A stretch of DNA of 31,171 nt from IMG/VR virus record IMGVR_UViG_3300044448_004553, positions 1 to 31,171 of that record; one strand, 5' to 3'. Position 1 is the stretch's first letter; each line of letters starts with the position of its first letter. Shown one piece after another: positions 2,224 through 31,171 of this stretch. The notes beneath the pieces are model-generated. The model was not told the origin of the DNA, searched no databases, and worked only from the letters and a program-made list of their open reading frames with translations. Origin of the DNA: a virus. Its lineage: Duplodnaviria > Caudoviricetes. The position numbers and the translations under genes were made by a program.

Positions 2224-3195
2224 ATGCCATATGAAATAGACGATGATTTATTACAAGATATAGAGAGTGGAGCTGCAGATGCTTGGCAACAACATGGAAG
2301 CGGTTCAACTATAGACACAGAAGCTTTAAGTAATGAGGAATTAGCTTATTTATCTACAAATCCCGAATATTTATCTGCTATAATGGGTGATTTGGGTATA
2401 GATAATCCTGATGATTATACTCAATTTATTAGTGCTTACGATCCATGGAAAGAAGATATAGCAGGGAAAAAATGGACTTTAGGGAAAGATAAGTTAATGT
2501 CTGATACTAGAAAGGGGTTATTAGATGCACTTGGTGATCCTTTGCAAACAACAACATATGCAGCTAAATCAGGATTTGAAGGTATGGGTCAAGATCAAGG
2601 CGGATATCTTAAAACTTTACAAGATATCGATGTTCAAGGGGCTGAAAATAGGTTTAGGCAGGACTTGCAAGGGACAACACTAGCAAGAGATGAAGCTATA
2701 GAAGGAGCTCGTCAAGATTATTCTGATATGCTTTATCGTGATATAGGAGATATATATGCTCAGCAAGAACAAGCAAAAGCATGTTTTAGAGCTGGTACAA
2801 AAATTGAGACTCCTAATGGTAAAAAGAATATTGAAGATATTATAGCTGGAGATACTGTAAAAGCTTATGATGAAAAAAAGAAAAAATTTGTTTATAAAAA
2901 AGTATATGAAACACATATACATTTAAACAATAAAGATGGATTAGTAATAAATGGAGAATGCAAAACAACAGATAATCATCCATTTTATACTATTGATGGA
3001 GAATGGCTTTCAGCAGGTGAGTTAAAAATTGGTCATAAAATATTAGATAAAAATGGAAGCTTTAAAGAAATAAAAGTTATTGAAAAAGATAATAAGCCTT
3101 ACACTGTATATAATTTTGAAGTAAGAAATGTTCATACATATCTTGCAGACGGATATTTAGTTCACAATGGAGGTGGAGGTAAAGGCGGTAAATAA
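2224..3195 (+). CDS. acidic virion-module protein with C-terminal Hint (BIL-like) domain and GGGGKGGK tail, 323 aa
   Basis: Hint motifs: C187-FRAGTKI (block A), TTDNHPF (block B TxxH), VYNFEV..HTYLADG.LVHN315 (blocks F/G). The C+1 residue is Gly. Confidence 0.85.
   Translation: MPYEIDDDLLQDIESGAADAWQQHGSGSTIDTEALSNEELAYLSTNPEYLSAIMGDLGIDNPDDYTQFISAYDPWKEDIAGKKWTLGKDKLMSDTRKGLLDALGDPLQTTTYAAKSGFEGMGQDQGGYLKTLQDIDVQGAENRFRQDLQGTTLARDEAIEGARQDYSDMLYRDIGDIYAQQEQAKACFRAGTKIETPNGKKNIEDIIAGDTVKAYDEKKKKFVYKKVYETHIHLNNKDGLVINGECKTTDNHPFYTIDGEWLSAGELKIGHKILDKNGSFKEIKVIEKDNKPYTVYNFEVRNVHTYLADGYLVHNGGGGKGGK
2782..3168 (+). other. Hint domain, 129 aa, without endonuclease
   Basis: Runs from the Cys codon TGT at 2782 to His-Asn at 3163-3168; Lys-rich and AT-rich compared with the acidic N-terminal part. 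Confidence 0.88.
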
Positions 3196-5380: not shown

Positions 5381-8300
5381 ATGGCTAACGGTATATCATA
5401 TTACGAAATTAATCAAAAATATAGAGAAGAATGGAATAAGGGAAATAAAATTAGTTATGATCAGGCTCGTGATCTAATTAAACAAGACAGACTTGCTGCT
5501 ACTCAACCAGCTGCTATACAACCTACATCAGGAGAGCCTGAAGATCCTTTTACGTTAGGATTGACTACTTCTTTAAAATATCCTGGAGCAAGTTTAGAGC
5601 CTGGCTCTTCAGATGAAATCTTTCCTGAAGGCAAATATCATGATGCCAAGCCCGATGCATTGGGAGATTCTTTAATGGATGTTATAGGTGGAGCTCTTTG
5701 GGGTTTTGGTAAGGTTGGTACATTTGGAGCTACTGATTATTTAACCAGGAAAGCATTTGGAGATGAAGCTGTTGATGAAGTATTAGCAGATTGGCAAGAT
5801 AGTAAAGCTGGGAGAATTGCCTTAATGTTAGGTGAAGCTGGGGGTTTCTTAAGAGGAATAGGTCTTGTAAAAGGTGGTATGGCTAAAACTGCTAACATAG
5901 GTGCTTTAGGAAATACTACTAGAGGCTTACAAAGAAAAGCTGCTAAAAAATTAACTGAAGATATAAATCAAAATTTACTAAAAAATGTTAATAAAACAGG
6001 AGTAGATATAAAAGATGTAAATAGATTTATAATCAATAGTACAGATGATTTAGTTGGTTTTGGTAATAAATCAGGACTTGCTAGTCGATCTAAAGGTACT
6101 TGGGATTTTTTAAATCCATTTTCTCACTCTGTAAAACCTTATATGAACATGAGAAAGGGCAGTTCTTATATAGGGCAAGTGACAGGTCAGATGAGAGGTT
6201 CTATGCCTGGTAAATTAACTTCTTATTTAGGCAGTAAGGGAATTGCTGCTTCAACTGATGACATTGTAAGATTGTCTGATGATATAATTAATCAAGTAAC
6301 AAAAACACCTATAAACAATTTAGATGATATGATAGTTAATCGATGGGGCGGTAAATTCAGCCAAATTGCAGGTGGAGTTGCTCAAGAAGCCTTTGATATA
6401 GCAATGGTAGGTACTTTAATAGATGCTCATATGTATGCTAATGGAGAATTAGAGCCTGAGCCAGGGCAATCATATGCTGGATTATTTGCAAAGCAATTTT
6501 TGCATCATGCCTTAACAGGTGCAGCATTTGGAGGTATAAGAGTTATTCCTGGTGGAGCTTCAATGCCTATATATAAAAAAGTAGGCATGGCTTTAGATTT
6601 AAAAAATACAAATCAAGTTTTAAGTAAATTTGGTGGAAATATAAAGGGATTTAATAAGCATATAAGTAAAGTAACAGATCCAAAAGGTATGAGAGCTGTT
6701 CTCGAAACAACATTTAATCAAAATAGAAATTTTGTTATTTCACTACCTAATGGTCAAAAACTATTTCATGGATCAACAGCTTTAAAAAGTATCAAACCAG
6801 GCGATTTACCTACAATAAAAAAGGCTATAATTGGTCAAAATCAAAAATGGTTAAAGGAATTAAGAGGTGGATTAACAGCTAAAAATCCATTTAAAAATGA
6901 AATTGTTAAAGATTTATTTTTTAGTTCTCCTAGATGGCTAGGAGGAGCTGCTGTTATGAATTATGCAGCTTTAAATCAAGGTGTATTTGATTCAATGGAT
7001 CCTGATGAAGCAGGGGCTCATTTCTTATTGAGTACATGGATGTCAAAAAGAGGTAAACCATTAAGAGGAAAAGGTGTAGAAGGTAAAAAACCTGCATTTG
7101 ATTGGTCTAGTGGAGAAAGACCTTATTTTTACAATGAAGAATTAGTAGAAATGCATAAAAACATGGAGCATTTAGGGTATAATATGACTCATGTAAAAGA
7201 TCTTGTTAAAGGATATGAAAGAGGAATATATGATACTTATATTAATAAGCATATAGAAAGCAATGGAGATATTACAGAGGTAATAAAGGCTTTAGAAAGA
7301 AATAATATTATTTATAATAGAGAAGAGTATTTAAGTAAACATAATAATGAAGATTTAAGAGCATCTGGAAATGGTGATGTTATTACTTCTGAATTAAGTA
7401 AGCTAATAACTCCTGTTTCTGGTGTAATAAAAGCAAGAGGATATGATTTTAATCCTAATATGTTAAAAAAGAATATGGATTTAGCTATTAAAGATATCCA
7501 TCAATTAAAGTCAACTGTTTTATCAACAACCGATAATCCTATATCATTAAATAGTACAGAAAGAATTAAACAAAGTATTTTAAAATCTACTGAAAGTCAA
7601 TGGAATCAAATAGAATTAGATTTATTTAATAACTTTAAAGATATGGCAACTTTATTAACTGGTAATCCAAATTTTATTGATAAATCTGGAAGAATGTTAA
7701 ATAGAATTACTTTTGCTCCTGATAATATTGAATTAACGCAAAAACAAGCAAGAGCTGTAAGGCAATTTTTTGGATTACAACAAGAATTAGAACAATCAGG
7801 TTTAATTACTATTAGAGAAAAAAATCAAGGTAAACAATTTGGAACTAATGTTCAGGAACCATTTGAAAAAAATATTGAAGCTCTTGCAAATATACATGAT
7901 AATTTTTCTAGTTATCTAGGAAGAGAAGTTTATGGACAAAATTCTAATGAAAGAGTTGATCTTACAAGTCCAGAATTATGGCATTTCATAGGTCATAATG
8001 TATTTAATAAAAATGTTCGTGTTAATTATGATATATTGTTTAATAATAGAGAATCTTTACCTAAAGATGTAAATGATGCAACAGTAGATGACCTTACTAG
8101 TTTAATAGATAGAATGGTATCTCCTGATAAAAGTAATAAATCTGCCATAGTTAATGATGTTAGAAATTTAATAATGAATGAAAGTGGAGAGACTTATAAA
8201 CGATTAATTAATGAAGGTAATTTAGGGGAAATACATGATTTAACTAGTATGATGCATAATCTTTACAGTATTATGAAAACAGGAAAATCTCCTCAGGGCG

Positions 8301-11300
8301 GTAAAGCTCAATACTCCGTATCAGAAGCCATAGAATTAAAGGGTAAATTAATTGAATTAGGTATGCCCGATCCCTCAAGAAATAATGGCGAAGATTTTAG
8401 AATATGGACTGAAAAAATGCGTAATCATGGTATTAATGAGGCTATTGGAGGCTTAGATGTAAGTCCTGAAGTTTCTTATTCTATAAATAGATTAATGGAA
8501 GGTGGTTTAGTAGCAGTAAATAAAGGCAATCAAAGCTTAGGCGGAAGACTTGAAATGGCTAGAGAGATAAAAGCTGTAGATATAGAGCGCTTAAATCCTG
8601 ATATGTCTAGCAAAGAAATAGATCGAATGATAAAAGTATATGATGATATTGTAACTTCTATACCTAATAAAGCAGTAGCGAAAACAGACCGTATTGATAA
8701 ATTATTTTTAACAAATGAACAACTTGCAACATTAGAAGCTGTAGCAAAAACTATTAATATGAATAAACATATTAGTGATTCTAAAGATTTGCATGTTCCA
8801 GTTCAAGAGATAATTATGAATCTTCAAGAAGAAAGACAATTACTTGAATCTTCTATAAAAGATACACAAGGAATGGAAAAAACTGTTATAGATAGAATAA
8901 AGGCAAAAATAAAATTAGCATCACAGCAAGAAACGCTGCTAACAGATTGGGATAAAATGTATTGGGAAAATGTTATGGGAACTAGAGGAGATATAACTCG
9001 TTCTGCAGCATTTTATCATCATGTTAAAAATACAAAAATAGATGGTAAAACTATTTCTGAGTTATTTTTAGAAATGAATCAATCTAGAGAGAAACTAGAT
9101 ATGAAAACTTTTGATACTATTAGTGAAACTATTGATTTATTACAGCAAGAAATAGCTCAAAGATGGAGAAATAGACCAGAAGTATTTACTGATATTGAAA
9201 TACAAAGAGAAGAATCTCTTATCAGACACCAAGCCGAAGAACTTATGGGTAAATTAAATTCTGACAATAAAAATACTATAAGTCCTGATAACTTTTTTGT
9301 AGAATATGCAAAAACTGGTGAAGCTCCAATGATGGAAAAAGTTGTAAATCAAATTGTAGCTCAAGGAGGAAAAAGAAAAACCTATGAAAATGCCACAGAG
9401 GCTTTATATGATTTATACGAAATATCAAATACAGGTATTAAAAATACCAATTTTAGAGATGCTATATATGAAATCTCTGGATTAAAACAAGGCGATATAC
9501 CTAGTAATAAACTTAAAAATGATACACAAAGATTATTCAATTTATTTGAAAGACAATTTTCAGTTAATAAGATAACGTTAAATCTTGCTGGAGATAATAA
9601 ATCTTTAGATTATTCAGGTACTTTTGATAAAGGCACTATAAGTCATAGTAGATTTACAGATGTATTTACAGAAATATTTAAAACAGCTGACTTAAATTTA
9701 TTATCAGATCAAGTACTATTAAATAATAAGATAACTACATTAAGGGGTGAATCTACAGGAGATGTTGGTTTATTTGAAAAATTAGTAAATACATTAGCTC
9801 AAGATAGACTTATAATAACACAAAAAGCTGGAGCCACAAAAAATCAAAAATTAGCAAGAACAGGCACAGAAGTAGAGCCAAGTGGTGATAATTTCCTTAC
9901 TTTTGATATGACTAAGCAGGGTACAAAAGGTAAGCAGTATCTAATAGGAGTAGATGAAAATATAAATTTCTTAATGCCCCATACTGAGTTCCATTCTCTG
10001 GCAAAATCATTTAAAAAATGGTATGAAGTTCAAAAAAATGATCCCTATGTTTTAAATGCTATAAATAAGCATAGAGGAGCAGCTCAATTATTTGAAAGAT
10101 TAGGAGAATATTACAAATATATTGAAGGTTCATTACAGGATCGTAAATATAGTATTGATTTATTTAAAGTTCAATCAAAAAAAGTCCCTTCAAATAGATT
10201 GTTAACTAAAGCTTTACATGAAATGTTTAATGTAATGTATGGCGAAAGAATTGATGGAGATTGGTTGCAAAGTGCTTATGATGCAAATATGAGCCATAAA
10301 GACTTTAAATATAGGAGATTAGGGTCAAACCAAGGATATGCAAGAAATACTGATAAAAGACGTGATTTTACGCTTCAATTATGGGGAGGAGATAAATCAT
10401 ATATTGGAGATGTTGTTAGAAAATATTCTCCAATGTCTTTTTATAATAATTTAGTTATAAATGATGCTGGGACAATATCTGAAAAAGGTCAAGTTTCTAG
10501 TGATTATATTACTGATAATAGAACTGTAGCTGAAAGATCTATAAACGAACAATACAATAATAATAAGATTACAAAAGAGCAAAGAGATGGGATGTTAAGC
10601 AGATTATTTAATTCTCATTCTCTAAATGCTGAAGCAAATAATGGTGCTACTGTAGTAAGAAGAGAAAGATTAGATTTTATATTAATTAATGAAGGGAATT
10701 CTCAATTAATAGGTGAATCAGCAGGGCATAAACCTGTCGGAACTTCTAGTTTTAAGGATGCAAATGGAAATATACATGTCTTCTATAATAAAACACATTA
10801 TTTTTATGATAAAAAATTCGATACATTTTTTGCTAATAATCCTAATATTGAGCAAATTACACTTACCAGTGGAGCTAAAAAAGCTAAAATAATAAAAACT
10901 ACAGATCCAAATTTAATAAATAATTTATTAGCTATTACGCCTCCTAAAACATCAGAAGCTACTAATATAGTAGATTGGCTAAATAATAAAAATAATTTCA
11001 ATAATATGGATTTCATAGATGGTAAAAATGGTGTTGCAAGAATAGATGCAAATCAAGATCTTATTGGAACTGTATATGGTGAGGCTAAAGGCGCTAAAGT
11101 ATTAAAGCAACTAAGTAATTGGTCTGAATATCAAAAGGAAATATTTATATATGGTAGAGCAGATGCAATTAAGAATTTTAATACTGTTCGTTATAATTTA
11201 TATGATCCTAGTAGGCCGCACGAAGCTGGCGCTTGGGCAAGAGAGTACTTAAATGAAAAAACTAATAAAGGTAATGCTCATAATCCTGAAAATGAAAATA

Positions 11301-14300
11301 TCAGTTTAGCCCAATTATGGATTAGTGGAGGTGGAGTGCCTTATAGTAGGATTTCTAAAAATCTTTATGATAATATGGTTAAAAGCAGATTTATAGATGA
11401 TTCTGGGGTATTTGATGGTTTTACACATGCGGGAGGAGCACCTATATTAAGACCTGATTTTACAGGTAAACTAAATATACCAGTATATCAAAAAATAGGT
11501 GGACAAGAAGTACAGACAATATTAGGTGAAGCTAATGTAGGATTCGATTTTCTAGATAGAACAATAACACATACAGGTCAATTTGGCAAATCTGTTTTAA
11601 AAGAAAAGACTGCTAAAGGTACTATTAAGAAAAATAAAGCTGAAGAAATATCTTCTATAAGTGTAGCTGTAAATGTAAGAGATAATAGATTAGGCCATAG
11701 GGATATACAGATAGATTTAAAAAATGGTGAAATCTATGATCCATTTGGTATTGTTAAAGATTTGCCTGCATTTTATAAAGCAGCACCTAAAGGTTATAAT
11801 AAAACTATAGGAAATTTAATAGATGGTATACAATTAGGTAAAATAGTAAGATATAGAGATATAACTAGTTATCTTTTTCAAAGAGAAGGTACAACACCTG
11901 CAAATATAGTAGGAGTATTCAGCCCTGCTCCAAGAACAGGTCCACATGATTTGGTTGCTGCTAAAATTACTAATAGACCTATATCTAAAAAAGATGGTGG
12001 TGTAGTAGAATTAAATTCTTATGATCTTACGCTTAGAGCTCAAAGAGATTTTGATACTGATAAATTACCTTTTTATTTAGATTTACCATATAATGTTGTA
12101 AGAGAAGCATATAAATCAAATAGTTTAATTAAGGAAGCTATGCCTATAAATGAGGCTTTGAAAACTAAACCTTCGTATGATCCTTATAATGCTGAAGATT
12201 TTTGGATGCATAAAGGTAGAATAAAAGATGCTGGATTTTTAAGGGGCAAGGTTCAAAAACAACATCGTAAATTAGATTATGCTTGGCATATATTTAAAGA
12301 TATAGGTTCAATAAAATTTAATATAAATGGACAAAATGTTGAATTAGTATTTAATAAAAGTCAGAAGGGTTTACAAAGATTAACTAATGATTCACAATCT
12401 ATATTAGATCCATATAATGGTACTCCTGATGCAGTATTTAGTCCTGAATGGATAAATAATACTTTATTTGGTAATTCTGCTAAATTTGGAGATAGAAAAA
12501 GCACAGTAACAGCTAAAACAGATGAACCATTTTTTACAATGAAAGTGGGTAAAGACAATGCTTTAGTTAAGGAACCTATTTTAAAAGAAATTACTAATAA
12601 AATTTTAAACGATTACGGGAATTTATTAACTATTGAATCTGGTGTTTGGGAAGCTGGAGAAATGAAAACCCCTAGATATCAAGATATGCATACAATATAT
12701 AGGCAATTTCAAAACGATTATCATCCAAAAAGAATTAATTGGAATTTTTATAATTATTTAAAAGCTGCAAATGTTCAAGGTGTAGATCAAATATTTTTTC
12801 CAAAAGGCAAAAAAGATGCTAGTGGCAAAACTATTGAAATAAAAAATATATTTGGAAATTTATCTGAAGCTGTTAATAAACTACCTACTACATTTTTACA
12901 ATCGTTAGATGGTATAGCTAAACATGATATGCTAAAAGTAAATGAGATTGTTAATCCTCAAGGTGATTATTTTAATCAAGGTATTATGAAATGGTTAGGT
13001 AGATATAGAGGTGAAATATTAGAGTCTATAAGATTAGGTGATGATATTCCTGCCGTAATAGATAAAACTCCGATTATAGATGAATTATGGAATGGTTTTA
13101 GAAAAAATCTTAAAACAGAAGAAATGATGATTCAATTAAGTAATCTTGAATCTCAATTACATTCATTAGAAAGTATAATGCAAAGAAAAGTTGAACAAGG
13201 ATTAGGAGAAACTCCTGAATTTACAGTATTAGCAAATGATATAGCTATTAAAAGAAATGGTTTATTAGTTTTAAGAGATAAATTAATGGTTGAGAATTAT
13301 GGTGAAATGCCTGGAATGGAAAAAATCACAACTCAAGGAAAGAAAGAAAGAATTATAGGTGAAGCTGCAGGTGTAGTAAGAAATGAAAAAACTGGAAAAC
13401 TTATAGAGAAATATCCTCCAGGTTCTAAAAATATTGTAATTAAAGAAGGGGAAGTCTTTATTAAAAATGGAGTTCAATTAGTACCTGTAAGAAGCCATGA
13501 TATGTTAGATGCCGTAGCTTTTGCTAGAGCTACATTAGGATATTATGCTCATATAAAACCTGAACACAAAAATAGTTTTACAGAGATAGTTTCAAATACT
13601 AGAAAAGAAATTAACGAAAGTATGGCAGAAATTATGGACTTCAAGGGTTATAAAGATTGGAGCCGACATTATGCTAAAGTACAAGAATCTATAGATAGGG
13701 GTTTAAGAAGAATAGAGGAAATGGCAAATATAGATGCTCCTATGGATGGAGCTATTAGTCAGCCAACAAATGTAGGTAATTATCCTAAAGGCACTGAAAC
13801 TTATGGGAAAGATTTTTTAATGGCTTTATTAGTTCCAAAAGAAAAATATAAATCTGGAAATAATGTATATTATAATCCTACTAATAACGAATTTCTACCT
13901 GCAGTAGGCAATATTAATAAAACAGTAGTAGATGCTGTAATGCAAAGTTTAAAAAATTATAATTTATCTTCAAATTTTAATGGGTTTGTAATGGATTTAG
14001 CTAAAGTTCATGGGGCTAATTATAAAACTTTAACAGCAGGTGATGGATTTGATATGGCTGCAAGAAAATTATCTACAACTACTTTTGAAGGTGCTTTATT
14101 AAATAATGCTATTGAAAGAGTATTGCATGATCCGTTTGTGACTAAAAAAGAATATAAAACTTTAAAAGATAATATGCAATTAACTGAAGCTGTAGGTTCA
14201 CAATTTGCTGAGCTTTATAGACAGATTCTTCAAGAAGGAGCTATGACAGACCCTATTACAGCTTTTAGATTAAAGGAAAGATTAATAGAATCTTATGGGC

Positions 14301-14563
14301 AAGATGCTTATGATTCTGTATGGAAGAAATCTAGAGGATATATGGTATTTGATGGTATTACTACAAAACAATTTGGAGGTGGTACTGGTCAAGGTCAATT
14401 AATAGGAGAACTATTGTATCCTAAAGGACCAAGAGATATTATTAGAGCTCCTCAAGTTAGAAGAAAAAATAAAGATGGTGCTGAAGTATTAAGAGTAATA
14501 GATCAAATTGGTGGTCAAAATAATTTCTATATAAATAAAAATAATAAAGGGAGATGTAATTAA
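5381..14563 (+). CDS. giant virion protein containing a single-chain two-barrel (DPBB) RNA polymerase, crAss-like vRNAP type, 3060 aa
   Basis: Catalytic DxDxD as RDFDTDK (aa 2223-2227). Upstream PAPRTGPHDLV aligns with the RxP..P.D motif of cellular RdRP/beta'. Beta-like barrel motifs in the expected order: NNGATVV, HK1784P, NK1804, TSGAK1833K. Downstream SQSILD. The N-terminal ~600 aa is Gly-rich with hydrophobic helices. Confidence 0.8.
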   Translation: MANGISYYEINQKYREEWNKGNKISYDQARDLIKQDRLAATQPAAIQPTSGEPEDPFTLGLTTSLKYPGASLEPGSSDEIFPEGKYHDAKPDALGDSLMDVIGGALWGFGKVGTFGATDYLTRKAFGDEAVDEVLADWQDSKAGRIALMLGEAGGFLRGIGLVKGGMAKTANIGALGNTTRGLQRKAAKKLTEDINQNLLKNVNKTGVDIKDVNRFIINSTDDLVGFGNKSGLASRSKGTWDFLNPFSHSVKPYMNMRKGSSYIGQVTGQMRGSMPGKLTSYLGSKGIAASTDDIVRLSDDIINQVTKTPINNLDDMIVNRWGGKFSQIAGGVAQEAFDIAMVGTLIDAHMYANGELEPEPGQSYAGLFAKQFLHHALTGAAFGGIRVIPGGASMPIYKKVGMALDLKNTNQVLSKFGGNIKGFNKHISKVTDPKGMRAVLETTFNQNRNFVISLPNGQKLFHGSTALKSIKPGDLPTIKKAIIGQNQKWLKELRGGLTAKNPFKNEIVKDLFFSSPRWLGGAAVMNYAALNQGVFDSMDPDEAGAHFLLSTWMSKRGKPLRGKGVEGKKPAFDWSSGERPYFYNEELVEMHKNMEHLGYNMTHVKDLVKGYERGIYDTYINKHIESNGDITEVIKALERNNIIYNREEYLSKHNNEDLRASGNGDVITSELSKLITPVSGVIKARGYDFNPNMLKKNMDLAIKDIHQLKSTVLSTTDNPISLNSTERIKQSILKSTESQWNQIELDLFNNFKDMATLLTGNPNFIDKSGRMLNRITFAPDNIELTQKQARAVRQFFGLQQELEQSGLITIREKNQGKQFGTNVQEPFEKNIEALANIHDNFSSYLGREVYGQNSNERVDLTSPELWHFIGHNVFNKNVRVNYDILFNNRESLPKDVNDATVDDLTSLIDRMVSPDKSNKSAIVNDVRNLIMNESGETYKRLINEGNLGEIHDLTSMMHNLYSIMKTGKSPQGGKAQYSVSEAIELKGKLIELGMPDPSRNNGEDFRIWTEKMRNHGINEAIGGLDVSPEVSYSINRLMEGGLVAVNKGNQSLGGRLEMAREIKAVDIERLNPDMSSKEIDRMIKVYDDIVTSIPNKAVAKTDRIDKLFLTNEQLATLEAVAKTINMNKHISDSKDLHVPVQEIIMNLQEERQLLESSIKDTQGMEKTVIDRIKAKIKLASQQETLLTDWDKMYWENVMGTRGDITRSAAFYHHVKNTKIDGKTISELFLEMNQSREKLDMKTFDTISETIDLLQQEIAQRWRNRPEVFTDIEIQREESLIRHQAEELMGKLNSDNKNTISPDNFFVEYAKTGEAPMMEKVVNQIVAQGGKRKTYENATEALYDLYEISNTGIKNTNFRDAIYEISGLKQGDIPSNKLKNDTQRLFNLFERQFSVNKITLNLAGDNKSLDYSGTFDKGTISHSRFTDVFTEIFKTADLNLLSDQVLLNNKITTLRGESTGDVGLFEKLVNTLAQDRLIITQKAGATKNQKLARTGTEVEPSGDNFLTFDMTKQGTKGKQYLIGVDENINFLMPHTEFHSLAKSFKKWYEVQKNDPYVLNAINKHRGAAQLFERLGEYYKYIEGSLQDRKYSIDLFKVQSKKVPSNRLLTKALHEMFNVMYGERIDGDWLQSAYDANMSHKDFKYRRLGSNQGYARNTDKRRDFTLQLWGGDKSYIGDVVRKYSPMSFYNNLVINDAGTISEKGQVSSDYITDNRTVAERSINEQYNNNKITKEQRDGMLSRLFNSHSLNAEANNGATVVRRERLDFILINEGNSQLIGESAGHKPVGTSSFKDANGNIHVFYNKTHYFYDKKFDTFFANNPNIEQITLTSGAKKAKIIKTTDPNLINNLLAITPPKTSEATNIVDWLNNKNNFNNMDFIDGKNGVARIDANQDLIGTVYGEAKGAKVLKQLSNWSEYQKEIFIYGRADAIKNFNTVRYNLYDPSRPHEAGAWAREYLNEKTNKGNAHNPENENISLAQLWISGGGVPYSRISKNLYDNMVKSRFIDDSGVFDGFTHAGGAPILRPDFTGKLNIPVYQKIGGQEVQTILGEANVGFDFLDRTITHTGQFGKSVLKEKTAKGTIKKNKAEEISSISVAVNVRDNRLGHRDIQIDLKNGEIYDPFGIVKDLPAFYKAAPKGYNKTIGNLIDGIQLGKIVRYRDITSYLFQREGTTPANIVGVFSPAPRTGPHDLVAAKITNRPISKKDGGVVELNSYDLTLRAQRDFDTDKLPFYLDLPYNVVREAYKSNSLIKEAMPINEALKTKPSYDPYNAEDFWMHKGRIKDAGFLRGKVQKQHRKLDYAWHIFKDIGSIKFNINGQNVELVFNKSQKGLQRLTNDSQSILDPYNGTPDAVFSPEWINNTLFGNSAKFGDRKSTVTAKTDEPFFTMKVGKDNALVKEPILKEITNKILNDYGNLLTIESGVWEAGEMKTPRYQDMHTIYRQFQNDYHPKRINWNFYNYLKAANVQGVDQIFFPKGKKDASGKTIEIKNIFGNLSEAVNKLPTTFLQSLDGIAKHDMLKVNEIVNPQGDYFNQGIMKWLGRYRGEILESIRLGDDIPAVIDKTPIIDELWNGFRKNLKTEEMMIQLSNLESQLHSLESIMQRKVEQGLGETPEFTVLANDIAIKRNGLLVLRDKLMVENYGEMPGMEKITTQGKKERIIGEAAGVVRNEKTGKLIEKYPPGSKNIVIKEGEVFIKNGVQLVPVRSHDMLDAVAFARATLGYYAHIKPEHKNSFTEIVSNTRKEINESMAEIMDFKGYKDWSRHYAKVQESIDRGLRRIEEMANIDAPMDGAISQPTNVGNYPKGTETYGKDFLMALLVPKEKYKSGNNVYYNPTNNEFLPAVGNINKTVVDAVMQSLKNYNLSSNFNGFVMDLAKVHGANYKTLTAGDGFDMAARKLSTTTFEGALLNNAIERVLHDPFVTKKEYKTLKDNMQLTEAVGSQFAELYRQILQEGAMTDPITAFRLKERLIESYGQDAYDSVWKKSRGYMVFDGITTKQFGGGTGQGQLIGELLYPKGPRDIIRAPQVRRKNKDGAEVLRVIDQIGGQNNFYINKNNKGRCN

Positions 14564-23635: not shown

Positions 23636-23669
23636 CAGTGGCCTTGATTTTGTTAAAAAAACGTCTTAT

Positions 23670-23698
23670 AATTTACAAAAAATGGATAAATATTCCAA
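23670..23698 (-). promoter_or_regulatory. sigma70-like promoter for the replication/recombination operon
   Basis: TTGGAA-17 bp-TAAATT on the minus strand, ~35 nt upstream of the first ORF. Confidence 0.5.
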
Positions 23699-23707
23699 GT
23701 TATTTAA

Positions 23708-24001
23708 GGAGGTAGTAAATGATGCGAAGCTTATGATCATTCGTCTACCTGCAGGTTACGCACTACCTCCCTAAATGTATTAATGTAGTCAATGCAACTG
23801 TAACCCTAAATCGGCTGAGCTTATCCAGCTTAGTTAATACAGCGCCATAATTGGTTCTCTTAGTGATCAGGAATATCGTCCAAGGGACTTGCCCTTGAGG
23901 CTCACCAGTATCTCCGTGACTGACATGACTACATTAAATTATTGATGTAAACTGGTATCCGTGCCCCGCATGTTTAAACGGACATATGAGATCTCTGGGG
24001 C
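23708..24001. ncRNA. cluster of three stem-closed structured elements
   Basis: Inverted repeats 23708-16/23762-70 (9 bp), 23780-91/23926-37 (12 bp) and 23963-67/23997-24001; inner hairpin 23881-23897; GC-richer than the flanks. Confidence 0.5.
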
Positions 24002-24009
24002 TCCGCAAT

Positions 24010-24357
24010 TTACATCAAATTCATTTTCTTTATATTCTTCTTGGTACTTGCCATCCAAGGTTTTGGTTTGATTTCTTTAAGCCAATCTTGAACTGTAGGA
24101 ATAAAGCCCAAATCTTCTCTTATGTGTTGTTCTGCTATAGAACGTACTGGTATATTTTTACCGTCAGAGTTTGAGATTACTATTCCAAATTTCAATTCAC
24201 ACTCTTTAATACCTTGAGTATGATGTCTTAAAGCTCTATGTCTTATGTCTCCATAATGATCCTTAGATTCATCAAACCAAGCATGTATGTAATGATAATC
24301 ACCTACACGCCCTCCAAAATGCTTTACGCTTGATAAACAGTGATTTGATGCTTTCAT
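24010..24357 (-). CDS. DUF6915-like His-rich phage protein
   Basis: HxxSSVKHFGG..DY..IH.WFDESK...RHRALRHH..GI...IAEQH..ED.G.IPT..DWL (recalled family pattern). Confidence 0.75.
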   Translation of the reverse strand: MKASNHCLSSVKHFGGRVGDYHYIHAWFDESKDHYGDIRHRALRHHTQGIKECELKFGIVISNSDGKNIPVRSIAEQHIREDLGFIPTVQDWLKEIKPKPWMASTKKNIKKMNLM

Positions 24358-24965
24358 CTTTCATAAACCTCATCACCATACCAAGTTTCAGGTTGTTTTC
24401 CATCCATGAAGTATGTTTCATTCACTTTTACAGCTGCATATCTATTTTGCTCGCCTTCTACACGAAACTCTTCTTTCTCTAAATCCCATACAACTTCACC
24501 TTGTCCACCTTCATTGTTATACCAATCATAATCTACGAGTTCTGTAAGTTCCCAATGTAATTCAGAATTTAAGTTTTGATCAGGATGTTCTTTTCTAAAC
24601 ATTTCATATTGTTTTTCAAGTTCTTTTTGATTTCTGGTCATTCCTTTCCATTCATCGAAGTTTTCTACTTTATCATGATTCCAACGCTTAGATTCATACG
24701 TATCTGGCCAATTACCTCTATCATCTTTCTTTTCAAGATTGATTTCTTTTTTCCAGCCTTCTGCATGATAACAATCACCACTGTCACCAGCACCTTCATA
24801 CCATACTCGAATATATTTATATCCAATATCTCTTAAGAATGCTGCTAAATCCCTTAATGATTGAGCTTTAGATACTCTATGAGCTTTCCTTCTTTCCATC
24901 CAATCTATTACCCATTTTTCTGATCCAATTTCTGTTTCTAATGACTCTTTTGTTGCTTCTGCCAT
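24354..24965 (-). CDS. DUF6878-like phage protein (probable start MAEATK at 24965)
   Basis: V.YEGAGDSG and DWYNNEGGQG motifs; AGGAGA RBS before 24965; ATGA-coupled to the DUF6915-like gene. Confidence 0.7.
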   Translation of the reverse strand: MAEATKESLETEIGSEKWVIDWMERRKAHRVSKAQSLRDLAAFLRDIGYKYIRVWYEGAGDSGDCYHAEGWKKEINLEKKDDRGNWPDTYESKRWNHDKVENFDEWKGMTRNQKELEKQYEMFRKEHPDQNLNSELHWELTELVDYDWYNNEGGQGEVVWDLEKEEFRVEGEQNRYAAVKVNETYFMDGKQPETWYGDEVYER

Positions 24966-25028
24966 ATTTTTTCTCCTTAATTTGATTTTCAATAAAAACA
25001 TCTATTTTACTCTCAATCCAACCATCTA

Positions 25029-25325
25029 TCATGATATTGCCTTTCTTATCATTGAAAATGGAACATTATATGCTACCATTCCATCTATAGTTTTATCATA
25101 ACAGTCTACAACAGCCCGTGTTCTGTTGATTTTAATTACTTTACCTGATTCTATTTTAGCAGAACCTGATATTATTACTTTATCTCCTATTATTAATCCA
25201 GATTTAGTATCTCTGGCTAACTTTTTACTTCTAGTTTTAACCATTTCTCTTACTAGATCTAAATCATCTATACTATCTAAAGTATCAATTAATTTAAATA
25301 AATCAGTTTTTGTGTCTTGTCTCAT
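25029..25325 (-). CDS. hypothetical protein with SH3-like C-terminus, 98 aa
   Basis: IGDKV...GKVIKINRTRAVV...YNVPFSMI; AGGAGA RBS. Confidence 0.65.
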   Translation of the reverse strand: MRQDTKTDLFKLIDTLDSIDDLDLVREMVKTRSKKLARDTKSGLIIGDKVIISGSAKIESGKVIKINRTRAVVDCYDKTIDGMVAYNVPFSMIRKAIS

Positions 25326-25333
25326 GTTTTCTC

Positions 25334-25639
25334 CTAAAAGTTATCATTTTTATATTCTATCAGTTTTGGCATTTTATACTCTATTTGTTTAGGTTTTTCC
25401 CAATAATCCTTCCTATTCATGCCATATTTTTTAACAATCTCTTTAATTGCTAAAGCACTGGGTTTTCTTTGAGAATAAAAACTTTTTTCACTCCTATAAC
25501 CCATATATTCCCATACTTTTATATCATTTTTAAGAATAATATCAGTATCACCTATATTTGGTATCATATTTTCGTGAAAACCTAATTCAAAGCCACCATT
25601 TTCTAAAAAATCCATCATTTTATCTTTAATTTTACCCAT
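25334..25639 (-). CDS. hypothetical protein, 101 aa
   Basis: TAATG coupling with the upstream gene; GGAGG RBS. Confidence 0.65.
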   Translation of the reverse strand: MGKIKDKMMDFLENGGFELGFHENMIPNIGDTDIILKNDIKVWEYMGYRSEKSFYSQRKPSALAIKEIVKKYGMNRKDYWEKPKQIEYKMPKLIEYKNDNF

Positions 25640-25941
25640 TATTCATCCTCCACGCCTAATACTGGAAATGTCTCAGATTCTGTATCATTAATATATGACA
25701 TAGCTCCACCATCATTGCCTTCATCATCTCTCATAGGATATACCCATGTGCCATCATTTAATTGAAAACATAATGGTCTGGAATACCACATACATTCTTC
25801 AGCTTCTTGATTACTAAAGTATTCTACTTTAACTATTTTTTTACCTAATAATTTATCAGCTGCAAAATCAGTCCAGTACTCTGTTCTTTCTTTTACATTC
25901 ATTAAATCATACTTTTTACCATTTAATTCAGTTTTGCTCAT
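25639..25941 (-). CDS. hypothetical phage protein, 100 aa
   Basis: LLGKKIVKVEY...PMRDDEGNDGGA; AAGGAGA RBS. Confidence 0.7.
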   Translation of the reverse strand: MSKTELNGKKYDLMNVKERTEYWTDFAADKLLGKKIVKVEYFSNQEAEECMWYSRPLCFQLNDGTWVYPMRDDEGNDGGAMSYINDTESETFPVLGVEDE

Positions 25942-26077
25942 GTTTTCTCCTTATTAATTTCCATTGACCTGTTATAATTACTTTTTCAAACAATTCCATT
26001 GGCATGTCAGACCTTTTTAATTCTCCATCTTGCCATAAATCTTCGGCTGGAACTTCTTCCCATTTATCCAGATCCAT
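25928..26077 (-). CDS. hypothetical protein, 49 aa (not in ORF track)
   Basis: MDLDKWEEVPAEDLWQ...; AAGGAGA RBS. Confidence 0.55.
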   Translation of the reverse strand: MDLDKWEEVPAEDLWQDGELKRSDMPMELFEKVIITGQWKLIRRKHEQN

Positions 26078-26101
26078 AATGTCTCCTTAATTTAATTCTT
26101 T

Positions 26102-26620
26102 GGGACGAACCATCTGTTACTTTCGAGGCTGTTGAGTGGTCACGCATGTCGTCCCCGTGTATATTGATAAGAGCATGGTTATATTCAGCCAGAGTGATCC
26201 ATCAGTCTTATCTTACACATTATCCCTACCTCTTCATGCCTATGTTTCAGAGTTGGACTAAGTATTGGCATACTTTAAGAGGGCCCTGCAGTCGGCTTTT
26301 AAACTCTACTGTTACGTATGCCAGGCAATTTAAACTAGTGTGTGGTGTAGTAATGGAGGATATTTCCACACATATATATTTATGCTATAATTGTAGAAGA
26401 TTAATTGGTCTTACTACTGCTTGGTGTTAATTCCAAGACTATTATAGTTTATTACTACAATATTATTTAACATAGTTCTTAATATTTAAACCATGATTTG
26501 CACTCATAGCCTATTAATGTTCTATTGTTATTAATACATATCCTATTATATATACTACATAAGCCACTGACGCTGTGTATAGTCGACATCAACTGCCGTT
26601 CAACCAGTCTGTATATATAA
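26102..26620. ncRNA. array of five stem-closed structured elements
   Basis: Inverted repeats 26102-08/26149-55, 26166-72/26206-12, 26266-73/26316-23, 26346-54/26451-59 and 26546-55/26611-20; no RBS-led minus ORF. Confidence 0.5.
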
Positions 26621-26636
26621 CTAAAACCACAATGAT

Positions 26637-26789
26637 CTATTGCGGTAATTCTTTTCTTTCCAATCCATATGATGGCATATCTTGATAAATACGTGCATTA
26701 TCATTATTATCATATTGCCATACTAATTTCATTTTAGGGCAATAATATAATTTAGATCTACCCCAAGTTTTTTTGATTTGATTATCCAT
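26637..26789 (-). CDS. hypothetical protein, 50 aa (not in ORF track)
   Basis: MDNQIKKTWGRSKLYYCPK...MPSYGLERKELPQ; AGGAGG RBS. Confidence 0.6.
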   Translation of the reverse strand: MDNQIKKTWGRSKLYYCPKMKLVWQYDNNDNARIYQDMPSYGLERKELPQ

Positions 26790-26820
26790 TTGACTTCCTC
26801 CTGGATATTATTAGAATATT

Positions 26821-26982
26821 TTAGTAGTTTATTTGTGGTAAGGTATTATCAAGATATGTTTTTAGCCACCAACAATCTCCTGATACATTTTTAATGTAGG
26901 AATTTCTTTCTTCATTAGTTTTATAAAGAAGAGGTTCTTGATTCACTTCTTCTTCATAAGGCCATTCGTATTCTGTTTCCAT
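26821..26982 (-). CDS. hypothetical protein, 53 aa (not in ORF track)
   Basis: METEYEWPYEEE...PQINY; GGGAGA RBS. Confidence 0.5.
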   Translation of the reverse strand: METEYEWPYEEEVNQEPLLYKTNEERNSYIKNVSGDCWWLKTYLDNTLPQINY

Positions 26983-27056
26983 TATTCTCCCGTGGTTATT
27001 ATTAATAAATTATCATGTACTAGTAATATAAACCAAATACTTATTATATTACTGTA

Positions 27057-27215
27057 CTACCATTTACTTTCTTCAAGTCTGATCATTATAAAAGATGCTA
27101 TAATCCAAAAGAATAATAATACTGCTATTGGTTTATAGTTTAGATATCTATAATAATGGTTTAGTGTTAATATTGATAATACTATTGTTACGCTATGTAT
27201 TAAATATTTTGCCAT
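27057..27215 (-). CDS. small two-helix membrane protein, 52 aa (probable start 27215)
   Basis: AAGGAGA RBS before MAKYLIH; two hydrophobic segments. Confidence 0.5.
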   Translation of the reverse strand: MAKYLIHSVTIVLSILTLNHYYRYLNYKPIAVLLFFWIIASFIMIRLEESKW

Positions 27216-27231
27216 ATTGTCTCCTTTTAGT

Positions 27232-27531
27232 TTAGTAATACCATTCATTACAGCCTTCATATCCTTTGTCTAATTGATATCTAGCTTTTATATACATTTT
27301 CATCTCATCTTCTCCATGATGAGTTAATATTGCCCCTTCAATACTACTTACTTCTACATATTTACTTGGTATTTGTATACCTCTATGTTTAAGAGCATAA
27401 ATAGTATCACCTTCTTGTAATTCTTCTTCAATTTCAGACCAATGACGAAGATATATTTTCTTTACTTCTTCTTCAAAGAACCAAAACATAGCTCTTTTTA
27501 TCTTTCTTAAAATATAATATGGATATTGCAT
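27232..27531 (-). CDS. hypothetical protein, 99 aa
   Basis: AAGGAGA RBS; protein-like composition. Confidence 0.65.
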   Translation of the reverse strand: MQYPYYILRKIKRAMFWFFEEEVKKIYLRHWSEIEEELQEGDTIYALKHRGIQIPSKYVEVSSIEGAILTHHGEDEMKMYIKARYQLDKGYEGCNEWYY

Positions 27532-27566
27532 AATTATTCATCTCCTTGGTTATTTAAAATTTACAA

Positions 27567-28395
27567 GTTGAGATTATACTTGTTACACCAAGACTTTCAG
27601 ACTATGTTCCTTTTATTCGGTTTTGTCTTTATCCACATATGTTGCCATATGTACCCTGGTAAGCTCAGTAGTTATAGACTACCACTCTTATCGATTAAGT
27701 TATCTCAGCAGTTAATAATATCTATATGAATGTGCCCATCCATGTAGTATGTTCACTACAACACACATTAAGCTTGAGGCCAAATATGCTCTCTAGTTTT
27801 GCAAGAGATTTAAGTACTAGAACTTTTTGCTCTTAATCGCTATGGCTATTTTTCTATGTTTTCATATTTTAATGATAACTGGTCAATGTATTAAGTCGCT
27901 CATAGAATAGCTCACTATCCTTTTGGGTAGCAAATACTATACTTAATACTATCATTTATAATTGAGATATTACAAATCATGGTATGTCTGGTGTTGCCCT
28001 TTATTACTAAAGGATTAACCATAATACTGGAACACAGCCTTGCTCTCACACTTAGCTTATTATTCCTACTCCTTATCTTATTGTATGTTACCATACTCAC
28101 ATCAATTACCATCTTGATGATGCATATTCTCTTTGCCTTCGAGATTATACACATAGAAGCTTGTATCTATGAACCATCACTGGCGCTATACTATCTATCA
28201 ATAATAGTATTAACTTTGGGTATATTGCTATACTTATTCTAACGACATGATACTGCCGAATGTCCGAAGACAATTAATGAATTAGAGATAATAATATAAA
28301 GTATTTCAGCAACTTGATGTTTATCTACTATCTTATGTCGTCACATAATTAGTCTCTGCGATAAGAATTGCACTACTATCTCTAATAAATCTTAC
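27567..28395 (-). ncRNA. candidate large structured ncRNA (or ncRNA cluster) downstream of the tRNA
   Basis: Minus-strand GNRA and cUUCGg tetraloop hairpins, 7-10 bp stems and crossing pairings; no credible ORF. Confidence 0.55.
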
Positions 28396-28400
28396 TATTG

Positions 28401-28473
28401 TAGCGGAAACAGGAGTCGAACCTGATGTTTCTTGGTTATGAGCCAAGCGTTTAAACCGTTTTACTCTTCCGCT
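28401..28473 (-). tRNA. tRNA with CAT anticodon (Met-like), degenerate, no encoded CCA
   Basis: AGCGGAA/TTCCGCT acceptor stem; CTTGG-CTCATAA-CCAAG anticodon arm; CAGG-TTCGACT-CCTG T-arm; weak D-stem, G at position 8, T:T at 49:65. Confidence 0.75.
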
Positions 28474-28682
28474 ATAGACTTTCTTCTATCATAATGTCCA
28501 TCTTTACAAATCCTTGTAATTACTTTACGTGCTTGAACCCTTCCCATACCACGTATTCTCCAACAATTGACTACAACCCATTTAGGTGTCATATGTTTTA
28601 TAGTATTCCATAACTTAGATGGCTTATCCATTTTTATATTTAATAGTGTCTTTTGAGTGTAAATATCTGCTATTTTTCTCAT
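28461..28682 (-). CDS. hypothetical basic protein, 73 aa
   Basis: AAGGAGA RBS; its 3' end overlaps the tRNA 5' end. Confidence 0.6.
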   Translation of the reverse strand: MRKIADIYTQKTLLNIKMDKPSKLWNTIKHMTPKWVVVNCWRIRGMGRVQARKVITRICKDGHYDRRKSIAEE

Positions 28683-28829
28683 TCTTTTCTCCTTGTTATG
28701 TGTGGTATAAGTTGATATATATTTATCGTGTACAGGTGTGTGTATTGGAGTTAGTGTATGTAAACTCTGTGTTTTATAAGAAAACTGTCCTGTTTTGTAT
28801 AATAAATATAATATAAGTAATATATAAAT

Positions 28830-28852
28830 AATAAAAGGGGAAATAAATCCCC
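28830..28852 (-). terminator. intrinsic terminator after the first early gene
   Basis: Minus strand GGGGA-TTTATT-TCCCC followed by TTTTATT. Confidence 0.6.
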
Positions 28853-28873
28853 AATTATTATCTAATTCAATAA

Positions 28874-29194
28874 CTATCCAACTCTTTTATGAGTCCTATA
28901 GTTCTTTCTGTTATCAATCTCATCATTAATCATATTGATCTCTTGTTGAGTACGATTGATTTCAGTAACACCTCGCCTACCTTTAACTAATACAATGTTA
29001 GCTCCTCCTTTAATTAGCTCTAGTTTACGTTGCTCGCACGCTTGAAGAAATGGGTCAGCATATTGTACACCTTGTGGTGTTGCATCTGCTTCACTTGTCT
29101 TCTCATCATTACTAGGAAGTATTGACTTAAGGATTGCACCGACATGAGTAGTTACTGTGTCTGCTATGTATTGTTTATCTTTTACTGATAACAT
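28874..29194 (-). CDS. hypothetical protein, 106 aa, first gene of the early arm
   Basis: AGGAGA RBS; codon usage differs from the late genes; followed by a terminator. Confidence 0.7.
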   Translation of the reverse strand: MLSVKDKQYIADTVTTHVGAILKSILPSNDEKTSEADATPQGVQYADPFLQACEQRKLELIKGGANIVLVKGRRGVTEINRTQQEINMINDEIDNRKNYRTHKRVG

Positions 29195-29351
29195 TTATTC
29201 ATCTCCTAATTATTAAAACAATTAAAATTAATTAAATTAATTCAAATATAGAATCAAAAATAACGGAATCGTTAATTTGAAAAACCCCTGAATAGGGGGT
29301 GGGGTGTGTGTGTCTATGTGTATACCAAAATGACACAATTTTTAAAACCTC

Positions 29352-29380
29352 TTGTAAATTGCTTGACATTGAATTATATT
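29352..29380 (+). promoter_or_regulatory. sigma70-like promoter for the terminase/late operon
   Basis: TTGTAA (29352-57), 17-bp spacer, TATATT (29375-80). Confidence 0.55.
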
Positions 29381-29384
29381 AGGA

Positions 29385-29578
29385 TATCGGTAGTTAGACT
29401 TTTTTAGCTATCATCCAGTTAGTACCCTTGAAATAGTTCTGCTAATTGGATCAGAAGTTGGGTTGCTCTCCGAATAGGAAAAAGAGTTTGTCCCCAATAA
29501 CCGATAGAAATTGCTACAATATAAAGTTTAGATATGGGAGAAATTACTGGTCTATGTGGAAATTTGTAGTTAAACTTT
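29385..29578 (+). ncRNA. structured leader or standalone ncRNA upstream of the terminase operon
   Basis: Multi-stem junction with G-U pairs on the + strand (29413-24/29440-51), followed by crossing stems at 29513-29578. Confidence 0.5.
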
Positions 29579-29632
29579 TTAAAAATAGAACCCTTTCTAT
29601 TCAGGGACTCGTATATTCAACTGGAGATTATT

Positions 29633-29809
29633 ATGGCAATAAAAACATATGTATTAGAAGTAGTATTCGATGAAGAAACTGATGAATGTATCGTCTTAAA
29701 AGAATATGTTGAGCACGATGAAACAGTTTTAAATGTTGATGAACAAAAGATTAAAGTGGATAAAAAATTAGGTAAATTACTCGATAGTAGTATTATGGGT
29801 ATATCATAA
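29633..29809 (+). CDS. small acidic protein, 58 aa (not in ORF track)
   Basis: MAIKTYVLEVVFDEETDEC...IMGIS; GGAGA RBS. Confidence 0.65.
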   Translation: MAIKTYVLEVVFDEETDECIVLKEYVEHDETVLNVDEQKIKVDKKLGKLLDSSIMGIS

Positions 29810-29846
29810 ATTTTCCTACTACCCCTGGCGGGGATAGTAGAACGAT

Positions 29847-30596
29847 ATGAGAAATTATATAGTAAATAAAATACAACATGTTGTATTCGATGATTTAGAA
29901 GAAGTTCCTAAAGATTTGACCTTCCTTAAGGATTGGAGGGATGGTCACATAGGTGACTGGGTAGAGTCTGATGATGGATGTGTCATCCAGATACTCAGAC
30001 GTGGCAGAATGTTAAAACCTAAAGGCAAGGTCAAAACCATTGAGTACGTTGGTACTTGCACAGGCACATTTGTTGTATCCGATAAAAATAAAATGGATAC
30101 ATCGAAAAGAGTGAATATATACTCTATTGGTGGAAACATCGATAGAGAAGATCGTGTAAAGGAAAGAGATAGACTTAGCTCTAAGGAAGAGATGTTTGTA
30201 GTCTATATGGCTACGGGTCTATCTCCGCAGGAAGCGTATATGAAAGCGTTTCCTACGAACGAGCCTTCATATGCAAATATGAGAGCAAATCAATTAGTAA
30301 AAACACAAAGAATAAAAACAGCTATGAAAGAAGAATTAAAACCTATATTAGAAGAGCTGGGAATAAATGAGACTACAGTATTAAGAAATATAAATACTAT
30401 AGCTACATCAGCTCAAAAAGAAGATACAAGATTAAAGGCCTTATTTAAATTATCCGATATTATGGATTTAGAAGATAAAAGCAGGACAACAGTAACTCAA
30501 ATATCTGCTGCTGCATTTCAAGGATTTTCTAAGGATCAATTACAAGAGGCTGTAAGACCAAAACAGATAAATGGAGAAAAAGTAAATGGCAAATGA
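29847..30596 (+). CDS. terS: terminase small subunit with N-terminal extension
   Basis: LSSKEEMFV.Y.ATG....EAY.KAF......ANQLVK..RI HTH, then ETTVL..I..IA...DTRLKAL, typical of TerS; near the start of the late operon. Confidence 0.7.
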   Translation: MRNYIVNKIQHVVFDDLEEVPKDLTFLKDWRDGHIGDWVESDDGCVIQILRRGRMLKPKGKVKTIEYVGTCTGTFVVSDKNKMDTSKRVNIYSIGGNIDREDRVKERDRLSSKEEMFVVYMATGLSPQEAYMKAFPTNEPSYANMRANQLVKTQRIKTAMKEELKPILEELGINETTVLRNINTIATSAQKEDTRLKALFKLSDIMDLEDKSRTTVTQISAAAFQGFSKDQLQEAVRPKQINGEKVNGK

Positions 30597-31171
30597 AAAC
30601 TATTGGAGCCCAGAAGCAATAAAGGCTAGAACAGATGCATATAATGCACAAAGGGGAACTGCAGCAACACCTGTGGATATGGTTTCTCCTACTGCTAGCG
30701 CCCAAGGAGCTCCTACAAATGAATTTATAGAAATGACAAATCAATTACCTGCTGTTCAGAGGTATAATGAACAATTTAATGTGGCTCCTGATCAAAGGAC
30801 ATATTTAAGCCCTCAAGAGATAGTTCAAGTTACTAATGCACAAGCTGCTCAATTAGGAGATCAAAGGGCAGCTGCAATGGAAGGCAATATAATGGATTTA
30901 TTCCAAGCGCAGGATACTGCAAATATATTCGATACATCTAATGCTTTAAAAGTAACAGAGTCTATGGGTGTTGATCCAAAAACTATTGATTATGGCGGAG
31001 GCCCTGTAACAGATCCAAATAGAGTTGTAGATGCAAACTATATCCCTACAAATGTCGCAGAACACGCTTTACCTGGATTACCAGCAAAACAAGAAATAGT
31101 TTCTCCTTCAGCAGCAATGAGAGATACTAGTCCTTTAACACAAATATTTGGAGTTCCTACGGAAAATCTAG
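30586..31171 (+). CDS. hypothetical protein (3' truncated)
   Basis: ATG at 30586 with GGAGA RBS; open to the window end (MANENYWSPEAIK...); Ala/Pro/Gln-rich. Confidence 0.65.
   Translation, partial: MANENYWSPEAIKARTDAYNAQRGTAATPVDMVSPTASAQGAPTNEFIEMTNQLPAVQRYNEQFNVAPDQRTYLSPQEIVQVTNAQAAQLGDQRAAAMEGNIMDLFQAQDTANIFDTSNALKVTESMGVDPKTIDYGGGPVTDPNRVVDANYIPTNVAEHALPGLPAKQEIVSPSAAMRDTSPLTQIFGVPTENL

Follow-up and report, generated by a model that had tools for sequence, protein, structure and literature searches.

A compact, divergent GOLLD RNA gene in a marine phage genome

The sequence analysed here (referred to as the window), a linear virus record of 31,171 bases with an estimated completeness of 59%, carries on its minus strand a divergent, compact marine GOLLD, a known kind of giant RNA and not a new RNA class. 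Conservation and covariation span positions ~28275 to 27565, or ~710 nt, with a tRNA gene lying upstream. Taken together, the evidence makes it likely that this is a GOLLD gene of ~710 nt, whose RNA would be excised from a longer early transcript and is predicted to form a cage, with host translation as the favoured candidate for the target of its action.

Family assignment

Searched against Rfam in E-value mode, minus-strand positions 27565-27949 match model positions 1-416 of GOLLD (RF02032) with a score of 126.4 bits and an E-value of 2.8e-34, the alignment being full-length apart from the deletion of one hairpin. This score falls short of the RF02032 gathering cut-off of 150 bits, a curation threshold rather than a structural trait, and a standard Rfam scan therefore shows no GOLLD, with the tRNA alone reported for the whole window at the gathering threshold. 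Relatives were gathered by pattern scans of viral and metagenome contigs, and GOLLD was matched by all of those submitted to Rfam (17/17 and 20/20 loci), with 12 of the 20 above the cut-off. Close relatives L155 (171 bits) and L107 (166.9 bits) exceed the cut-off and share ~73% identity with the window along almost the entire core, and the sub-threshold score of the window thus represents drift within the GOLLD family; part of this GOLLD lineage sits below the Rfam cut-off.

An earlier sequence-only reading of this DNA had proposed a giant structured non-coding RNA of the GOLLD or ROOL kind, which the RF02032 match and the covariation described below bear out, but had matched it to no known family, where Rfam in E-value mode gives GOLLD itself. 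Of the families that it had suggested for a covariance model search, GOLLD was found, but ROOL, RNase P, tmRNA, and group I/II introns gave no Rfam match in positions 25900-28900 at E-values up to 10. Additionally, no tmRNA was found by ARAGORN. A blastn search of 50,697 phage records gave matches in 65, all of them covering less than 80% of the query, and among the 20 matches listed 19 correspond to the tRNA and one is a weak 56-base match at the 3′ end. A literature search turned up no publication describing GOLLD from this marine phage group.

Extent and coding potential

Similarity to relatives begins at ~28275, so that the conserved unit is ~710 nt rather than the ~830 nt first proposed. 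The four tetraloop hairpins named in the sequence-only reading are all present where it placed them, and a fifth, which it missed, lies at 28233-28220; against these five hairpins, 5000 dinucleotide shuffles of the 829 nt yield 0.18 on average and never as many as four. The region also folds more stably than its shuffles, with a z-score of −4.48 and 0/20 shuffles folding as well. Promoter-like sites number 18, below the shuffle mean of 25.3, and no promoter is claimed. Two ORFs inside the region, of 79 aa (minus strand) and 87 aa (plus strand), lack any Pfam match or convincing PHROG match, with their frames kept without internal stops in 2/30 and 4/30 rows respectively. The core has no conserved ORF, the feature that the sequence-only reading had named as speaking against an RNA, and is non-coding.

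Structure of the two domains

The features of the locus are as follows, with all P and B labels taken from a by-eye mapping on env-38, a marine GOLLD, and from PMC12286853 and PMC12990946.

27950..28275, minus strand: GOLLD 5′ domain, covarying (17 sequences, 77 pairs)
28272-28261, minus strand: short opening tetraloop hairpin of the 5′ domain, outside the counted pairs, its loop varying by eye
28228, 28091 and 28007, minus strand: GNRA-type loops of 5′ domain helices
28044..28048, minus strand: P10 loop, 5′ kissing-loop partner (B4 equivalent, label mapped by eye)
27963..27967, minus strand: P12 loop, 3′ kissing-loop partner (B4 equivalent)
27565..27949, minus strand: GOLLD 3′ domain, whole RF02032 model without one of the two P21 hairpins
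27840..27887, minus strand: variable A-rich linker J13/15, 48 nt here and 46-84 nt in 30 rows
27733..27736, minus strand: single P21 hairpin, its loop bearing a self-complementary GC dinucleotide that may make a symmetric kissing contact of the B8/B9 type
27569..27707, minus strand: 3′-terminal pseudoknot formed by 27707-27702 and loop L27 (27574-27569), 92.7% paired

Both domains characteristic of GOLLD are present, namely a variable but structured 5′ domain, whose correspondence to env-38 was established by eye, and a conserved 3′ domain with helices P13-P27. Counted on structures derived from the same alignments, in which related sequences inflate the counts and can beat shuffles without structure, the 77 pairs of the 5′ domain are 95.7% paired, with two-sided changes in 50/77, across the 17 closer sequences of a 30-row working alignment, and the 87 pairs of the 3′ domain are 94.5% paired, with two-sided changes in 52/87, across 16 sequences. 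In both domains the covariation is higher than in 500 shuffles and in slid controls; for the 5′ domain, 0/500 shuffles scored as high and the slid controls were 29-48% paired.

A search with the 5′ domain, using a sequence profile only, reaches few canonical GOLLD loci (L039, E-value 1.8e-6; L089, 1.5e-5; L076, 0.026) and most not at all, and homology of this domain to that of env-38 therefore rests on by-eye comparison. Approximately 38 distinct 5′ domain sequences of this GOLLD lineage are present among the fetched loci.

Within the 3′ domain, GC or CG lies in or beside loop L21 in 29/30 rows, judged by eye over an 8-base window that includes stem bases, with the remaining row holding a 4-base palindrome. 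By analogy with the contacts described in excerpts of PMC12286853, the P21 loop is a candidate for symmetric kissing of the B8/B9 type. The 3′-terminal pseudoknot shows two-sided changes in 0/6 pairs, and is therefore conserved rather than covarying.

Long-range contacts

The window holds equivalents of both the L10-L12 kissing loop (B4) and the L20-J13/15 contact (B7) of GOLLD. The B4 equivalent (28048-44/27967-63) is 94.1% paired, with two-sided changes in 4/5 pairs and A-U and G-C pairs switching in concert. In the B7 equivalent, positions 27854-27853 of J13/15 pair with loop L20 at 27777-27776, and are complementary in 19/19 scorable rows (of 30, the 11 unscorable rows being distant ones) through three combinations found in 10, 5, and 4 rows; a column-based count gives only 56%, because of a one-column shift. 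According to excerpts of PMC12286853, B4 and B7 are intermolecular bridges in the env-38 cage, and the window's lineage adds new covariation evidence on two contacts that join separate molecules in a solved cage.

Three of the five crossing stems that the sequence-only reading had drawn in the core were given by it with both strands, and these are complementary as it stated; 1/5 is kept by relatives. This stem, 27941-49/27888-96, corresponds to P13 and is 96.9% paired, with two-sided changes in 5/8 counted pairs across 16 aligned sequences. Across the same 16 sequences, stem 27901-07/27852-58 is 45-55% paired, stem 27950-56/27871-77 is 68% paired, and the crossing pair at 27792-27834, as interpreted here, is 80% and 65% paired, figures that the poorer alignment of the linker may lower somewhat; these four unsupported stems collide with helices that are 94-100% paired. 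Most of the proposed pseudoknots are accordingly rejected for poor pairing in relatives, the supported long-range pairs being different ones.

The tRNA gene and the variable insert

Two features lie upstream of the core.

28401-28473, minus strand: tRNA, anticodon CAU (tRNA-Met; Rfam RF00005, 50 bits)
28281..28386, minus strand: variable insert of ~106 nt with a 16-bp closing stem, outside the conserved GOLLD

The Rfam match confirms the tRNA that the sequence-only reading had placed before the region. It is called tRNA-Met by its CAU anticodon and could be initiator, elongator, or Ile2; it encodes no CCA end, and is missed by ARAGORN at default settings. The last codons of a 73-aa ORF (28461-28682) overlap the 5′ end of the tRNA gene, within its initial 13 bases (28461-28473). 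The tRNA lies ~125 nt upstream of the core, with the ~120 nt between them separate from GOLLD and holding no terminator-like site.

The closing stem of the insert includes G-U pairs (28386-28371/28296-28281) and scores above all 150 control windows. It contains the 10-bp stem 28281-90/28377-86 of the sequence-only reading, which is indeed complementary but closes a non-conserved insert; the remark in that reading that several adjacent RNAs might be present holds in the form of insert plus core. Relative L182, whose tRNA is the same, shares 98% and 97% identity with the window in the two GOLLD domains but 42% over 28395-28276, and on this sequence comparison the insert is swapped for another sequence in L182. 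The insert is absent from L006, L010, L015, L023, and L212, and in other relatives the tRNA lies within 6-25 nt of the core. Homologs of the insert were sought among the fetched loci, in 32 whole records, and by a 17-base scan of viral contigs, with none found except an identical contig; the best match in the 32 whole records was short and AT-rich (E-value 4.8e-4).

Unrelated sequences with long closing stems also follow tRNA-Met in other loci, above the local control in 6/21 and not in the remaining 15/21. In related phages, such units are 70-145 nt long, with closing stems of 11-16 bp, and lie directly behind tRNA-Met at the following positions.

L182:2125-2268, stem-closed unit
L161:1600-1680, stem-closed unit
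L276 after 2489, stem-closed unit
L279 after 601, stem-closed unit
L222 after 2523, stem-closed unit

Five related loci gave no Rfam match except tRNA. The L161 insert recurs at other positions in L209 (96%) and L154 (91%), which suggests a mobile unit. We tentatively propose that the slot behind tRNA-Met may be an array of exchangeable small-RNA cassettes with long terminal stems, excised from a single transcript, in which GOLLD would be one cargo and the 106-nt insert an uncatalogued small RNA. Should this be true, close relatives differing in nothing but cassette content would offer natural comparisons with and without GOLLD for the study of its function.

RNA-library contigs

Contigs from RNA runs were mapped on 24000-31000, the four runs (from four studies) being marine metatranscriptomes chosen for holding this DNA and represented by contigs rather than reads. 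Depth is confined to 4/30 bins, covering 27510-28445, and the listed pieces span 27611-28259. The missing contigs over the tRNA and insert are given no weight as evidence. Run X15 shows an untemplated T-run (27611) together with two adapter-like tails (28163 and 28259), which suggests minus-strand RNA. One contig of a relative bears a tail directly after its variant of the first hairpin, hinting at a 5′ end there; we take the tails in X15 and in this contig to be adapter. As contigs of runs selected for this DNA, these data are at most supportive of expression.

Comparison with known giant RNAs

The env-38 GOLLD is an 833-nt marine RNA that forms an RNA-only cage of 14 copies and has a Met-tRNA context, according to excerpts of PMC12286853. 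Like env-38, the window's RNA is phage-encoded, marine, and downstream of tRNA-Met, comprises the whole 3′ model, and has two domains and a variable linker, with B4 and B7 equivalents that covary in its own lineage. Comparison by eye with the env-38 sequence in the supplement of PMC12286853 places the env-38 start at approximately window position 28260, with hairpins in the same order, and shows loops for B1, B3, B6, B10, and, as a candidate, one of B8/B9. In contrast to env-38, however, the window's RNA is ~125-135 nt shorter, with shorter 5′ domain helices, lacks P11b-c (and so B5), has one P21 hairpin only, scores below the Rfam cut-off, and is parted from its tRNA by a 120-nt insert.

A closer likeness in size is found in the Streptococcus agalactiae GOLLD, a 700-nt dodecamer as reviewed in PMC12990946. 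Compared by description rather than by sequence, and from excerpts of that review, the two are of similar length, both lack P11b-c and one P21 hairpin, and both have the L10-L12 kissing loop, whereas the window keeps a P11a-type hairpin that the review gives as absent from the Streptococcus RNA and is carried by a marine phage. ROOL resembles the window's RNA in being large, phage-associated, near tRNAs, and, in the case of ROOL, cage-forming (excerpts of PMC12286853 and PMC5737381), but has an unrelated secondary structure, and Rfam shows no ROOL match in 25900-28900.

Alternative interpretations

The boundaries drawn above compete with a reading in which the whole 830 nt is a single GOLLD, lengthened by an additional 5′ domain and freed when the tRNA 3′ end is processed. 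The 16-bp closing stem of the insert, the lack of a terminator-like site in the tRNA-core interval, and the 833-nt length of env-38 behind a Met-tRNA (as given in excerpts of PMC12286853) are what such an RNA would look like; the replacement of the insert in L182 (42% identity against 97-98%) and its absence from L006, L010, L015, L023, and L212 are not, and furthermore the first hairpin of env-38 maps by eye to ~28260 and not to 28395, with the listed RNA pieces ending at 28244-28259 in 4/4 runs. We regard this reading as unlikely. Less plausible still, and improbable by a wide measure, is a new giant RNA class that shares merely a GOLLD-like 3′ domain. Whilst the window score lies below the Rfam cut-off and the sequence profile of the 5′ domain fails to reach most canonical GOLLD loci, the description of GOLLD itself in excerpts of PMC12286853 is of a 3′ region that is conserved and a 5′ region that varies, close relatives score above the cut-off, and the 5′ hairpin order and B4 kissing loop agree with env-38. 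That there is no RNA gene at all, but a small ORF or the chance folding of AT-rich DNA, has next to no likelihood: ORFs of 79 aa (minus strand) and 87 aa (plus strand) do lie inside the region, but their frames are kept in 2/30 and 4/30 rows, without a Pfam or convincing PHROG match, and covariation is extensive.

Phage context and distribution

Proteins encoded by the window include an ERF protein, a primase-helicase, and the small subunit of the terminase, and its GOLLD lies on the minus strand among small genes; with tRNA-Met ~125 nt upstream, it shares the phage or prophage setting of GOLLD, often close to tRNA genes. Runs holding the window are seawater, marine, or aquatic metagenomes (part of it present in 20/22 rows), and related records reach ~50-55 kb. 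The GOLLD motif is absent from GTDB genomes, and the primase-helicase has no relative in GTDB and just 26-30% partial matches in cultured phages, with no close cultured relative and no prophage relative found in these collections.

GOLLD is an accessory gene in this phage group, gained and lost. It occurs in 2/20 long records chosen by their primase-helicase and in 2/9 of those at least 90% complete, and is dispensable for the group given its absence from 7/9 near-complete related records. Among 11 fetched loci reaching the conserved element beside the terminase gene, GOLLD is present in one and tRNA-Met in six. With relaxed ARAGORN settings, the 36 distinct copies of GOLLD for which 300 nt or more of upstream sequence is available divide into 13 with a tRNA-shaped element within 170 nt, 21 with none, one with tRNA-Met 331 nt away, and one with an opposite-strand call only. 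As 21/36 copies are without a tRNA, tRNA 3′ processing cannot be the general release route, and is one route at most. One phage group is therefore known in which GOLLD can be dispensed with and frequently has no link to a tRNA.

Proposed maturation, assembly and function

The RNA would be transcribed with early genes and trimmed to ~710 nt. On balance, we lean towards host RNases setting the 5′ end at the first hairpin, with a tRNA or stem-closed insert serving as an optional cutting signal. By analogy with the solved GOLLDs, the kissing loops and tetraloop contacts that the RNA keeps are likely to join its copies into a hollow cage made of RNA only, and the cage would be dihedral and built through these retained bridges. 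The predicted particle would probably fall short of the env-38 14-mer in size and come nearer to the 12-mer of the 700-nt Streptococcus GOLLD, since P11b-c and one P21 hairpin are missing here as in the 12-mer-forming RNA. The window's RNA offers a naturally compact form in which to test how the loss of helices determines the size of the cage.

What such a cage might do is a matter for more tentative suggestion. It may bind ribosomes or shelter tRNA-like cargo, thereby aiding phage translation, a possible role favoured here because of the tRNA-Met context and the ribosome pull-down of GOLLD cited in excerpts of PMC12286853. Ranked close behind, and somewhat more doubtful, is a cage acting as a decoy or shield against host RNA-cutting defences, swapped with other small RNAs under defence pressure. 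The patchy presence of GOLLD (2/20 records) and the hypervariable slot behind tRNA-Met may resemble arms-race cargo; however, patchiness fits any accessory gene, and no defence nuclease or host has been identified.

Other elements in the window and related loci

Further non-coding elements were observed in the window. Positions 26080-26640 (minus strand) comprise 560 nt with no minus-strand ORF of at least 60 aa and no Rfam match, and are conserved in pieces in L154, L182, L172, L282, L294, L289, and L302. Two-sided changes occur in 15/29 predicted pairs of the 3′ part, 26080-26335 (6 sequences), and in 7/58 pairs of the 5′ part (4 close sequences), and the stretch is probably a chain of uncatalogued small RNAs. 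Positions 23640-24005 and 29200-29640 are intergenic and conserved in related phages, with the latter, which separates two divergent gene arms next to the gene for the terminase small subunit, likely to be regulatory.

In related loci, elements of ~80-90 nt that match only the ends of the tmRNA model (a tRNA-like domain without a coding part) lie just before or after GOLLD; the window has no such element.

L006:2819-2899, tmRNA-end element
L015:866-946, tmRNA-end element
L023:2297-2377, tmRNA-end element
L162:1801-1882, tmRNA-end element
L165:967-1047, tmRNA-end element
L194:7-98, tmRNA-end element
L174:262-339, tmRNA-end element

Two further recurring non-coding elements were recognised by eye, and Rfam gave no match to them in the loci that were scanned.

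L006, L015, L022 and L023: recurring elements upstream of tRNA-Met
L176, L194 and L206: recurring elements upstream of GOLLD

A pistol ribozyme (69.4 bits; L039:837-912, minus strand) lies just upstream of a GOLLD that weakly matches the 5′ domain of this lineage, and could make the GOLLD 5′ end there in place of a tRNA. Amongst the proteins of the window, a 3060-aa product (5381-14563, plus strand) is without a Pfam or PHROG match, and a 323-aa product (2224-3195, plus strand) carries a C-terminal pretoxin-type Hint domain (PF07591, E-value 1.7e-19).
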